Shown here: positions 4,258 through 8,256 of the stretch, piece by piece
Layout of the letters: every line of letters starts with the position of its first letter
How positions within the stretch are numbered: the stretch's first letter is position 1
Source of the DNA: a virus
Length of the DNA: 13,110 nucleotides
Virus genome (UHGV): UHGV-0162637
Direction: 5' to 3' (one strand)
The notes under the pieces: model-generated
Told to the model about the DNA's origin: nothing
Database searches by the model: none
Seen by the model: the letters and a program-made list of their open reading frames with translations, nothing else
Position numbers and translations under genes: made by a program

Positions 4258-4458
4258 TCAGGCAGCCTTGTTGTTCTGTTTACCAAATTCTCTGGCAATC
4301 ATTGCCGTCGTTCGTATTGCCCATTTATCGACATATTTCCCATCCTCCATTACAGGAAACATTTCTTCAGGCTTAACCATGCATTCCGATTGCAGCTTGC
4401 ATTCATTGCATCGCTTGAATTGTCCACACCATTGATTCTTATCAATAGTCGTAGTCAT
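4258..4458 (-). CDS. ral: Ral restriction-alleviation protein (66 aa)
   Basis: 66-aa product MTTTIDKNQWCGQFKRCNECKLQSEC... matches my recollection of lambda Ral in length and sequence; position between the N-like gene/sieB and cIII is the same as in lambda. Confidence 0.7.
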   Translation of the reverse strand: MTTTIDKNQWCGQFKRCNECKLQSECMVKPEEMFPVMEDGKYVDKWAIRTTAMIAREFGKQNNKAA

Positions 4459-4528
4459 ACGGATAGTCCTGGTATTGTTCCATCACATCCTGAGGATGCT
4501 CTTCGAACTCTTCAAATTCTTCTTCCAT
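4442..4528 (-). CDS. orf28-like acidic peptide (28 aa: MEEEFEEFEEHPQDVMEQYQDYPYDYDY)
   Basis: 87-nt ORF whose 3' end overlaps the ral start by 17 nt, the same arrangement I recall for the 87-nt ORF upstream of ral in lambda. Below the size cut-off of the ORF track; translation done by hand. Confidence 0.35.
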   Translation of the reverse strand: MEEEFEEFEEHPQDVMEQYQDYPYDYDY

Positions 4529-4671
4529 ATATCACCTTAAATAGTGGATTGCGGTAGTAAAGATTGTGCCTGTCTTTTAACCACATCAGGCTCGGTGGTT
4601 CTCGTGTACCCCTACAGCGAGAAATCGGATAAACTCTATTCACCCCTACAGAGAGCAAAAGAGAAACGCAG

Positions 4672-5253
4672 ATGAACAACTCATGGTGGCAGGAACTAAT
4701 GCATTTTTTCCTGCAAGGAATGACACTTAAACAGTTGATTCATATGCTAATCATCCTGATCATATTGATTATTGTTATGCCGGTAAGCGTAAAAGAATGG
4801 ATAAACCTGCATAATCCAGAAATCCTTCCTCATTATTGGATGTATTACATCCTGTTGTTCTGCGTTAGCTATGTGCTTAACGGTGTTGTTAATTCCGCTT
4901 ATCACGCTGTGACTGAAAGAATTGAGGTATCCGCTGCTCAGAAGCGCAAATCTAAAGAAGAAAAATATGTGCAAGATTTGTTTGATTCGTTAACTCTTGG
5001 AGAAAGAGCGTATTTGGCATTCGCTGTAGCCGCGAATAACCAGCTAAAGACAGAAAAGGGAAGCCATGAAGCAATCTCATTGCTCGAAAAAGGGCTTCTT
5101 ATTCGGATACCTTCTGCTACTGGATATCCTGAAATCGACCGTTTTGTTATCCCTGAACGCTATAGAAATGAGTGCTACATTAGGTTTGCTGGGAAGAAAG
5201 ACAGCCTTATGGATGAACTTATCGCTCAGGATAAGCATGGCAAAAACAAGTAA
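4672..5253 (+). CDS. sieB: SieB-like superinfection exclusion protein B (193 aa), membrane anchored
   Basis: Only plus-strand gene inside the leftward operon, between ral/orf28 and the N-like gene as sieB is in lambda and P22 (recalled). N-terminal hydrophobic segments then a charged C-terminal domain. AT-rich. Family assignment is from position, size and topology, not alignment. Confidence 0.65.
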   Translation: MNNSWWQELMHFFLQGMTLKQLIHMLIILIILIIVMPVSVKEWINLHNPEILPHYWMYYILLFCVSYVLNGVVNSAYHAVTERIEVSAAQKRKSKEEKYVQDLFDSLTLGERAYLAFAVAANNQLKTEKGSHEAISLLEKGLLIRIPSATGYPEIDRFVIPERYRNECYIRFAGKKDSLMDELIAQDKHGKNK

Positions 5254-5269
5254 TTAGCAAATGAATTTA

Positions 5270-5542
5270 TCATCTCGCCGTCAGTTGTTTTGATTTCCGG
5301 TAGCCTGCCGAGTAAATGGCTACGTTTGGCAGGCAAATACTTCCACTGCATTCTTCTGCCTTCTTGCAGCGAAGGCTTCCGAGTGATGCTGCTTTGTCTG
5401 CTCTGACGCAACCAGAGAGCTTTAACGCAATTTTTCGCGCCAGTGCTTCATTACTGCGTCGCTCGGCAATAAGTTCTGCTCTGCGAGCTTTGTAGCGGCT
5501 TTTTGCCGTACCTTTGGATTCTTTCCAGACAATGGTTACCAT
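5270..5542 (-). CDS. N: N-like transcription antitermination protein (P22 gp24 family), 90 aa
   Basis: ATG at 5542 with AAGGAG 7 nt upstream. Arginine-rich N-terminal motif (GTAKSRYKARRAELIAERR) and C-terminus ...YSAGYRKSKQLTAR resemble P22 gp24 (recalled). First gene downstream of the PL/nutL region. Confidence 0.75.
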   Translation of the reverse strand: MVTIVWKESKGTAKSRYKARRAELIAERRSNEALARKIALKLSGCVRADKAASLGSLRCKKAEECSGSICLPNVAIYSAGYRKSKQLTAR

Positions 5543-5652
5543 GATGGTCTCCTTTAAGTGGCTTTGGCGCATGACGCGTCGAGGTGCTTATCTTCTCGAT
5601 CGCTGTCTTGCAGCTGCAATTCGCGCCATCCCCAAAACCACTCAAGTTCTGG

Positions 5653-5832: not shown

Positions 5833-5857
5833 AAATAAAAAAGGGGCGAAAGCCCCT
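5833..5857 (-). terminator. intrinsic terminator immediately after the repressor gene
   Basis: Minus strand: TAA stop, then GGGGC-TTTC-GCCCC hairpin followed by TTTTTTATTT. Classic rho-independent terminator. Confidence 0.75.
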
Positions 5858-6507
5858 TAAGGAAGGTTTGCTAGCTTGGCATCAACGACAACGCCAATGA
5901 TTTTACAGTTCCCATTGATTTCAATCATTGGGTATTGTGGATTGAGTGGTTTCAGGAATTTTCTACCGGCATCAATAACTAACTTTTTGAATGTCGCCTC
6001 GTTTTCTCCTTCAAGTTTGGCGACTACCAGCTTTCCATTACGTGGTTCGACTTCTGGGTCGACGAGAATAATCATCCCCTCAGGAATACTCAGTCCTGCC
6101 GGGGCAGTCATTGAATCGCCTTTAACGTCGAGCCAAAAAGAGTCTTCAGAACAATCTACCGTTGTGTCGTACCAGTTATCTATTGCACGCCTATGATATG
6201 GCTCTACAGCTTCCATCCAACATCCTGCGCTTACCCAACTAATTAGAGGATACGAACCTCTTGGATCATGCCTGCTGTGATAGGCAATGTTTGAAAGACT
6301 ATCCTCTCCTTTCAACAGGTAATCAGGGGAGCACTGCAAAGCCTTGGCTAAGGCCAATAGGTTTTCGCCATTGGGCTCAGTTTCAGATCGCTCCCATTGG
6401 GAAATAGCAACATTAGACACGCCAACCATCTTTCCAAGGGCAGCCTGCCTAATCTTGAGTTCTTTTCTGCGAGCGCGAATACGCTCACCCATCAGTTGTG
6501 TATTCAT
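5857..6507 (-). CDS. c2: C2/CI-type prophage repressor (HTH plus S24 LexA-like autopeptidase domain), P22 C2 family
   Basis: 216-aa product MNTQLMGERIRARRKELKIRQAALGKMVGVSNVAISQWERSE...GVVVDAKLANLP matches my recollection of P22 C2 nearly throughout. Divergent from cro across an operator region. Confidence 0.9.
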   Translation of the reverse strand: MNTQLMGERIRARRKELKIRQAALGKMVGVSNVAISQWERSETEPNGENLLALAKALQCSPDYLLKGEDSLSNIAYHSRHDPRGSYPLISWVSAGCWMEAVEPYHRRAIDNWYDTTVDCSEDSFWLDVKGDSMTAPAGLSIPEGMIILVDPEVEPRNGKLVVAKLEGENEATFKKLVIDAGRKFLKPLNPQYPMIEINGNCKIIGVVVDAKLANLP

Positions 6508-7217: not shown

Positions 7218-7379
7218 ATGACAAAACGTCGTAAGAAATACCAGGAAAAAGAAGAGATTCGACACCCTGATTCACCTGAGGGATTAGTGGTAGCCGCAGC
7301 AAATAACAGGGCGTTCGCAGAGCGCCTTGTTGGTGTTTACAGACTAGCCAAAGCAGGAGTGAAACATGGGCGTCGTTAA
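7218..7379 (+). CDS. hypothetical small basic protein (53 aa) between cII and the O-like gene
   Basis: ATG at 7218 preceded by ACAGGAG at 6 nt; product MTKRRKKYQEKEEIRHPDSPEGLV... . Its 3' end overlaps the O-like start by 14 nt. Below the ORF-track size cut-off. Confidence 0.4.
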   Translation: MTKRRKKYQEKEEIRHPDSPEGLVVAAANNRAFAERLVGVYRLAKAGVKHGRR

Positions 7380-8256
7380 GTTAGCTGATTACAGGCATAA
7401 CCCTGTACAACATCAGGAGGCATCCAGTATGGGGTATGTCTCTATACACCGCCAGTTTATGGACAGCAGGCTCTATAAGGACTCTCAGGCAGTACATCTT
7501 TGGCTTCACTTAATCCTCAAGGCTAATCACGAATCTACTGTCGTCAATACGGATATCGGTCCGATAACTGTTGATCGCGGTCAGATGATAACTGGACGCC
7601 CGTCGCTGGTCAGAGAAACATTCATTCCAGACAACAAAGTTCGGAGCTTATTACGGACTTTTGAGTCGAAAGGGATGCTTAATATTTGCTCGATGGGGAA
7701 GAAATTTAGCCTGTTTACAATTGTTAAATATGACGATTTTCAGGCAAAAAATTGTCCAACGGTTGTCCAACGATTGTCCAACGCAACCCCCAGTAATGGC
7801 GCGGCTCTCAGCGGAGATTGTCCAACGGTTGTCCAACGATTGTCCATAAACAATAATATAAATAATATCTCTAATACTGACGTATTAGAGAGTACCGCAG
7901 CAGACAAAAAGTCTGACAAGAAAAAACCTTCCGTTAGCTGTCAGGATGTTGTCGATGCTTACCACGAAATCCTTCCTGAAGCGCCAAGAATCCGCGCACT
8001 GAATGACAAGCGTAAAAACCAGATCCGAACGTTCTGGCGCAAAGCCGGAGTAATAACACGTCAACTTGACGGGCATGGGTTCACGATGCAGGACTGGAGA
8101 AATTATTTGAGCTACGTTGGCGAAAATTGCCGATGGATGTTCGAAGAGCGCCCAAACCATCAACGCGGAACCGTCTGGCACAAAAAGGGATTTGATTTCC
8201 TGCTTAACGATAATACCTACCTGAAAGTTCGTGAGGGTGAACACGATGACCGATAA
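7366..8256 (+). CDS. O: replication initiator protein (lambda O-like), origin iterons embedded in the gene
   Basis: Position after cII; the iteron cluster in mid-gene is translated as the repeat CPTVVQRLSN. AGGAG SD before ATG 7366; an alternative in-frame ATG at 7429 has an AGGAGG SD, so the true start may be 7429. Confidence 0.8.
   Translation: MGVVKLADYRHNPVQHQEASSMGYVSIHRQFMDSRLYKDSQAVHLWLHLILKANHESTVVNTDIGPITVDRGQMITGRPSLVRETFIPDNKVRSLLRTFESKGMLNICSMGKKFSLFTIVKYDDFQAKNCPTVVQRLSNATPSNGAALSGDCPTVVQRLSINNNINNISNTDVLESTAADKKSDKKKPSVSCQDVVDAYHEILPEAPRIRALNDKRKNQIRTFWRKAGVITRQLDGHGFTMQDWRNYLSYVGENCRWMFEERPNHQRGTVWHKKGFDFLLNDNTYLKVREGEHDDR
7753..7880. repeat. lambdoid replication origin: six iterons plus AT-rich region
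   Basis: TTGTCCAACG at 7753, 7764 and 7775, then again at 7818 and 7829, with a variant TTGTCCATAA at 7840 (11-bp periodicity, two clusters 33 bp apart), followed by an AT-rich stretch 7850-7880. Same architecture as lambda ori inside O. Confidence 0.8.

Follow-up and report, generated by a model that had tools for sequence, protein, structure and literature searches.

The window, that is, the whole 13,110-nucleotide stretch that was analyzed, comes from a lambdoid phage and makes up its early-left and immunity region. It carries ral, sieB, genes for an N-type antiterminator and a CI/C2-type repressor, and a P22-type cro (Table 1). A pair of direct repeats lies directly 5' of sieB, between ral and the N/24 gene, and is antisense to the PL operon. 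The segment 4440-4760 is 99-100% identical to E. coli phages such as HK140. It is also 96% identical over 321 bp to Salmonella phage P22, in which both repeat copies are unchanged. The SieB protein of the window is 85% identical to P22 SieB. Between ral and the repeat-bearing module lies a 28-codon acidic ORF, MEEEFEEFEEHPQDVMEQYQDYPYDYDY (4442-4528, minus strand), the counterpart of lambda orf28.

Table 1. Features of the sieB control region and neighboring genes in the window.
Feature	Position	Strand	Basis or remark
ral	4458..4258	-	Ral PF11058
sieB, 193 aa	4672..5253	+	ATG 4672; PF14163, E = 3.4e-24
N-type antiterminator	5572..5270	-	N_peptide PF25694
CI/C2-type repressor	6507..5857	-	
P22-type cro	from 6588	+	P22_Cro
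PsieB promoter	4605..4635	+	homology with P22 annotation
PsieB -35 region TGTACC/TACCCC	4605-4612	+	weak match
PsieB -10 TAAACT	4630-4635	+	
Repeat copy 1 ACCCCTACAG	4608..4617, extended match to 4621	+	over the -35 region of PsieB, -34..-25
Repeat copy 2 ACCCCTACAG	4642..4651, extended match to 4655	+	+1..+10 of the predicted sieB mRNA
esc start, Met25 of sieB, in frame	ATG 4744	+	maps to P22 esc 29830
sas homologue, ~105-127 nt	4676 -> ~4568	-	alignment with published P22A-sas
Hairpin SL-B UUCUCG-C-UGUA-GGGG-UACA-CGAGAA	4599..4623	-	predicted in leftward RNA
Terminal hairpin GCCUG(N14)CAGGC	4568..4591	-	3' end of the conserved block

A sequence search confirmed that the 10-bp motif ACCCCTACAG occurs twice ahead of the sieB start codon, 34 bp apart from start to start, as the original prediction had it. 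No third copy exists in the window, even when one mismatch is allowed. The match extends beyond ten bases: ACCCCTACAGCGAG (4608-4621) and ACCCCTACAGAGAG (4642-4655) are identical at 13 of 14 positions, and the extended repeat reads ACCCCTACAG[C/A]GAG. The GAG-containing stretch noticed earlier behind each copy is part of this longer match. Exact 10-mer direct repeats spaced 11-60 bp apart have a mean of 0.99 per simulated 13-kb window, and 47% of such windows contain at least one. Since about one is expected per random 13-kb window, the 10-mer repeat is not significant alone. The window holds other direct repeats of this kind. One example is TTGTCCAACG, which occurs five times at 7751-7838 (starts 7752, 7763, 7774, 7818 and 7829) inside a 296-aa ORF (7366..8256); these repeats are probably origin iterons within an O-like replication gene.

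The comparison of sieB upstream regions that had been proposed as a check shows the repeats to be conserved. The sieB loci were gathered by protein searches, independently of the repeat. Both copies occur at the constant 34-bp spacing in sieB loci of Escherichia, Salmonella, Hafnia, Klebsiella, Yersinia and Phytobacter. In Arsenophonus and in the Rac type, copy 1 is exact and copy 2 has one mismatch, with a spacing of 35 bp in the Rac type. The module is kept where SieB identity falls to ~27-45% (lambda, Rac-type, Yersinia, Arsenophonus), and the block from ~4567 to 4651 precedes SieB homologues that are only 40-55% identical in Yersinia, Phytobacter, Arsenophonus and metagenomic contigs. The module also stands complete before lambda sieB, where the sequence becomes unalignable directly after copy 2. 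It likewise precedes, intact, the Rac-type sieB (27% protein identity to lambda SieB) and hkaP of HK620, another putative exclusion gene. Sequence variation is greater in the spacer than in the copies that flank it. Copy 1 is exact in 24 of 31 distinct paired-repeat variants, and its variants are ACCCCTACAA (bulge base; L080 group) and ACCACTACAG. Copy 2 is invariant in all nine sequences of the first alignment; elsewhere it appears as ACCCTTACAG (Arsenophonus, Rac type), ATCCGTACAG (L102) and ACCCCCTACAG. Because both copies and their constant spacing are kept across sieB loci, the repeat is beyond chance. A coincidental match, of which a 13-kb window should hold about one, would have had to persist across genera and through SieB divergence to below 30% identity, and we give it next to no credence.

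Of 5426 complete E. coli genomes, 991 carry the module, and none of them has it annotated. It serves phages with different immunity and N regions, including lambda, P22, VT1-Sakai and HK620. In a few loci, a mosaic joint falls in the spacer or directly behind the ACCCC of copy 2. Salmonella phage S9-5 (L009, 540-580, compared with window 4602-4641) has an exact 34-bp deletion of one repeat unit, which takes copy 1, SL-B and the PsieB -10 element and leaves the terminal hairpin and copy 2 in place. A Yersinia pekkanenii contig (L014, 204-323) has a second, weaker module match (23.9 bits, E = 7e-4) about 700 bp upstream of its sieB module, with a further stem variant, GCUGGG/CCCAGC. In the records of vB_EcoS-673R7 (L109, 575-700) and Hafnia phage Pocitis76 (L008, 532-600), the annotated sieB starts upstream of the module, and the module is thus translated in these records. 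The true sieB start in both is probably the ATG ~25-30 nt after copy 2.

The P22 annotation provides a functional frame for the two copies. Curated P22 records (BK000583) annotate 29690-29720 as the 'P sieB' promoter, 29727 as the 'sieB RNA start site' and 29830 as the internal in-frame start of esc. By alignment, and as read off the P22 sequence itself, these features map to 4605-4635, 4642 and 4744 of the window, and the RNA start corresponds to the first A of copy 2. With the mRNA start at 4642, copy 1 is promoter DNA, and the rightward transcript holds only copy 2. PsieB appears to be a weak promoter, since a sigma-70 consensus scan does not call it. Met25, the esc start, is invariant in 15 SieB homologues. 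Judged from this homology, the location of the repeats within a PsieB/sas module is close to certain, and the PsieB/sas locus itself is an already known control region. The earlier proposal that the repeats control sieB was therefore right in that they belong to the sieB control element, and wrong in the mechanism it suggested. It had also held that sieB must be expressed in the lysogen against PL transcription. This is not the case, because PL is repressed in the lysogen. The conflict between PL and sieB arises on infection or induction, and it is the basis of the known sas antisense mechanism.

P22A-sas is a 127-nt minus-strand RNA, defined by RNA-seq, that starts with UUCAUCGG opposite the sieB ATG (Table 2 of PMC13397905). 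A length of 105 nt has also been given for sas, under whose action the sieB message is translated into Esc instead of SieB (PMC12197685). The published P22A-sas (PMC13397905) carries CUGUAGGGGU twice and aligns to 4676..4551 on the minus strand of the window. The 5' end of the sas homologue lies opposite the sieB start codon, the RNA spans both repeats, with the complement of copy 2 in its 5' part, and its conserved part ends at the terminal hairpin; conservation stops at ~4567. A covariance model of the module (R1) has a single match in the window, at 4556-4679 on the minus strand, with 142 bits. Rfam gave no match in 4560-4680 at E up to 1, and none at the gathering threshold in five related loci. 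For sas, the scan calls no sigma-70 promoter inside sieB, where only weak candidates (TGcCACCAT) are seen by eye; sas could instead come from processing of N-antiterminated PL transcripts. A further hairpin, GCAGGAA-N12-TTCCTGC, lies at 4691-4716 inside sieB codons 7-15. Its nucleotides are conserved throughout the P22-type sieB genes, including those with 40-50% protein identity, and it could be relevant to sas biogenesis or to the SieB/Esc switch.

Copy 1 lies inside an imperfect palindrome, TTCTCG-TGTA-CCCC-TACA-G-CGAGAA, at 4599-4623. In leftward RNA, this palindrome is predicted by RNAalifold to form the SL-B hairpin, to which the minus strand of copy 1 contributes the bulged C, the inner 5' arm UGUA, the GGGG loop and the first base of the 3' arm. 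SL-B with a 4-nt apical loop is found in 24/24 distinct sieB-type variants, at -7 to -11 kcal/mol, and the loop is GGGG, or GUGG in L079. Base pairs were counted in a covariance-model alignment of 98 distinct modules that is fitted to the minus-strand model and holds related sequences, and its counts lean towards structure: all 10 pairs of SL-B are changed on both sides, and 88-92% of its cells are paired, compared with at most 43% when the partners are slid. Overall, 93.7% of cells are paired in this structure-leaning alignment (31-43% with slid partners), and none of 500 shuffles reaches the observed values. Non-Watson-Crick cells in the same alignment, again fitted to the minus strand, are G.U in 36 cases and A.C in one. 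An alignment-free comparison also finds the minus strand more stable than the plus strand in 50 of 58 distinct hairpin segments. These patterns of substitution make it highly probable that a conserved SL-B hairpin forms in leftward RNA, with copy 1 as its apical part. SL-B lies outside the region in which sas and the sieB mRNA overlap.

The terminal hairpin covaries as well, with UA:89 GC:8 CG:1 at one pair, GC:96 AU:1 at another and 99.8% of its cells paired, as counted in the alignment fitted to this strand. Its stem occurs as GCCUG/CAGGC, GCCGG/CCGGC, GCCUA/UAGGC and GCCCGG/CCGGGC. The bases CCAC (4581-4584) and GUGG (4595-4598) never vary and could form a pseudoknot at this hairpin. Around copy 2, only a few variants have a well-formed hairpin (SL-A). 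Support is thus confined to local hairpins and does not reach whole-RNA folds of sas or of the sieB leader: the fold of the whole sas is no better than that of shuffled sequences (z = +0.79), and the sieB 5' leader is predicted to be unstructured, with a z-score of -0.47.

The same data bear on the suggestion that the repeats are part of a structured 5' UTR of the sieB mRNA. The imperfect palindrome around copy 1 can fold on the plus strand too. However, the P22 start site leaves copy 1 out of the transcript, no pairing is predicted in the first 28 nt of the leader from 4642, and the variants favor the minus strand, on which the conserved hairpin lies. We consider a structured sieB leader very improbable.

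The module was also sought without reference to the repeat. IMG/VR was scanned with the terminal element alone, blind to the repeats, and the scan returned 120 loci with 81 distinct downstream sequences, in which the element stands before many unrelated rightward genes. 'Short' modules (class I) have one hairpin with a ribosome-binding site directly after it and are without duplication. 'Long' modules have an internal -10 element and a direct repeat. Every long module carries its motif twice, with the first copy starting 8-11 nt past the anchor and the second following at a spacing of 32-35 bp; exact repeats of at least 9 nt arise in about 0.4% of shuffles. The motif falls into three types: ACCCCTACAG (sieB, hkaP and others), TCCCCAACA(AC) and TTCCACAGTCAAA. 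Modules before other cargo genes bear different repeats, namely TCCCCAACAAC and TTCCACAGTCAAA. The copies match over 9-13 nt within each type, and the motif differs between types. In all three types, the identity starts at about the mapped or predicted +1 and covers the SL-B loop and 5' arm, and not the 3' arm. The spacers with the -10 element are homologous between types (TCGGATAAACT, TCGTTTAATCT, TGGATAGACT). The unit-1 tails of the three types resemble one another more than they resemble their own unit-2 tails, which suggests one old duplication. As the sequences read, they are most simply explained by one old duplication, after which both copies changed in parallel.

Other features of these modules were recorded alongside. 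A 33-bp element, GCCTGTCTTTTAACCACATCAGGCTCGGTGG (4567-4599; loci L118-L237), is nearly invariant and stands in IMG/VR before >80 different downstream sequences and cargo genes. Short modules have TATNCT 16 nt after TTMACC, and TTMACC-N16-TATNCT is possibly a sigma-70 promoter, with 8/12 matches, which is below the scan threshold. Class I loci such as L120 and L126 (e.g. L120:4457-4560) have a plus-strand hairpin with a conserved loop, AGUUCUCACACAAC, that holds the GcvB-target consensus CACAACA. An AgvB-type anti-sRNA was considered for the CA-rich loop (CUCACACAAC) of short modules and was rejected: AgvB is located at the PR' moron site, and the two are thus different loci.

Several other identities were considered for the repeat region and set aside. 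By eye, it has no CTGT-N8-ACAG, operator or TTGC-N6-TTGC sequence that would mark a LexA, CI/C2, cII-type or IHF site. A CsrA site was rejected because the loop is GGGG, without a GGA motif. An intrinsic terminator or tL1 was rejected as well, since neither strand of 4567-4625 is called and there is no U tract; the sequences 3' of the hairpins are AAAAGA and ACAAUC, and the HK620 tL1 is annotated elsewhere, inside the cargo gene.

The original prediction had viewed the copies as a pair of binding sites for a regulator. One protein would bind ACCCCTACAG at -34..-25 and at +1..+10 and thereby activate or repress PsieB. The copies sit where an activator (over -35) and a repressor (over +1) classically bind, the poor hexamers of PsieB might need help, and the spacing is constant at 32-35 bp. 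The comparison of modules nevertheless speaks against this reading, which we consider improbable. The same modules serve phages with different repressors, Cro, N proteins and cargo genes, and a phage-encoded binding partner is therefore unlikely. No candidate regulator is encoded in the module, and the variation of the motif between module types argues against a conserved host factor. The 34-bp spacing places the two sites ~0.24 turn out of phase. Moreover, the constraint is RNA-like and falls on one strand (G.U:A.C 36:1 in the alignment fitted to that strand; minus strand favored in 50/58 segments), and a DNA site would need neither.

The repeat could also be a relic of duplication in which the copies are not coupled. 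Copy 1 would then be kept as the -35 region and as SL-B, with a role in sas stability or 3'-end formation, and copy 2 as the transcription start and leader. The two units do align beyond the 10-mer (CGAGAAATCGGATAAAC and AGAGCAAAAG-AGAAAC), class I modules without the duplication exist, S9-5 lacks exactly one 34-bp unit, and the copies are not always identical. Yet independent copies should drift after an old duplication, and instead they match within types and differ between them. Their identity also begins at about the transcription start, which a relic at the DNA level need not respect. These two points make an uncoupled relic quite unlikely.

The best explanation, to which we assign a probability of about 0.5, is that the pair represents two copies of one motif in a bidirectional PsieB/sas module, with SL-B as a recognition loop. 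By homology with P22, the weak sigma-70 promoter PsieB (-10 TAAACT) would start the sieB mRNA at A4642. Leftward transcription on infection would yield sas (from ~4676 to 4568), which would cover the sieB leader and start codon. As described for P22, sas would block the translation of SieB, and Esc would still be made from Met25. SL-B would hold the complement of the very 5' end of the sieB mRNA in an accessible loop; the complement encoded in cis is predicted to be sequestered in part. SL-B may thus be the loop at which recognition of the mRNA 5' end nucleates, as in IS10 RNA-OUT/RNA-IN, and selection for pairing between SL-B and the mRNA would hold the two copies identical. A tandem duplication of a ~34-bp leader unit probably gave rise to the pair. 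This duplication may also have made the present -10 element, as GATAAAC in unit 1 corresponds to GAGAAAC in unit 2.

In silico, the SL-B loop and 5' arm (CUGUAGGGGU) are complementary to +1..+10 of the sieB mRNA. In predicted sas ensembles, the GGGG of SL-B is unpaired with a mean P of 0.79, compared with a mean P of 0.10 for the GGGG of the cis-copy, and 6/7 type-IIb modules, those of the second motif type, have the same contrast in accessibility. The recognition-loop step taken by itself is a model, and we judge it to be somewhat doubtful. Since sas is already perfectly complementary to the leader over 35 nt, a second short pairing site is not obviously needed. The copies are also not always identical and are sometimes 1-2 bases apart, which counts against a recognition loop. 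Wobble-compatible differences between the copies are in excess, and they lend no support to pairing between the mRNA and SL-B, because base composition alone predicts such an excess.

A wider proposal can be made from the module types, and we offer it as a tentative one that is on balance unlikely. The module could be a portable cassette of a promoter and a structured antisense segment that heads unrelated cargo genes of the PL operon. Its loop outside the overlap, matched to the first 9-13 nt of the cargo mRNA, would be a trans-type seed in a cis-antisense RNA. At least three co-varying types (ACCCCTACAG, TCCCCAACAAC, TTCCACAGTCAAA) could let an incoming phage silence the cargo of a resident prophage in a type-specific manner.

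Three aspects appear to be new here, as far as sequence comparison can suggest. The repeat is linked to a covarying antisense hairpin, it seems to vary in concert between module types, and the module is apparently in wide use as a head for other prophage cargo genes. The literature searched, outside which the 1993 papers of Ranade & Poteete fall, contained no description of the repeat, of the SL-B hairpin or of its co-variation with the mRNA 5' end. The sieB/esc/sas system is a textbook but little-studied exclusion switch. The proposed role of the repeat, if true, would explain by what means a short antisense RNA locates its target's 5' end. It would also account for the far stronger conservation of this ~110-nt non-coding block compared with the proteins under its control, and would show a way in which superinfecting lambdoid phages could neutralize exclusion genes of prophages with the same module. 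The module also offers a simple rule by which the start sites of sieB-like genes and of other cargo genes of the N-cIII interval can be annotated; several database records begin these genes too far upstream.

The closest known system is that of P22. Its PsieB promoter, sieB-esc gene and sas antisense RNA were reportedly described by Ranade & Poteete in 1993 (J Bacteriol 175:4712; Genes Dev 7:1498). The window shares with P22 the locus order ral - sieB - N/24, the promoter, the start site, the esc start and a sas with both copies, and differs in that its phage is an E. coli phage of the HK140 type. A second parallel is IS10. RNA-OUT of IS10 is a stem-loop that shows a loop complementary to the extreme 5' end of RNA-IN, and the pairing covers the ribosome-binding site. 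The sas hairpin has a similar loop, complementary in silico to the 5' end of the target mRNA. In IS10, however, the loop is the cis complement, whereas SL-B, which is outside the overlap, owes its match with the mRNA 5' end to the repeat alone. Lambda OOP RNA (mentioned in PMC7067206) is a further parallel. It is antisense to the 3' end of cII and works by way of RNase III cleavage. Like OOP, sas is a short cis-antisense RNA in a lambdoid early operon, directed against an oppositely oriented gene. Unlike OOP, it overlaps the 5' leader and switches between two start codons. Finally, phage 'morons' (Juhala et al. 2000, as cited in PMC4104026) resemble the sieB cassette in being autonomous, prophage-expressed cargo genes with a promoter of their own in an operon of opposite or other regulation. 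The sieB cassette differs from them in lying antisense within the PL operon, and in carrying, beyond a promoter and terminator, a conserved structured antisense segment.
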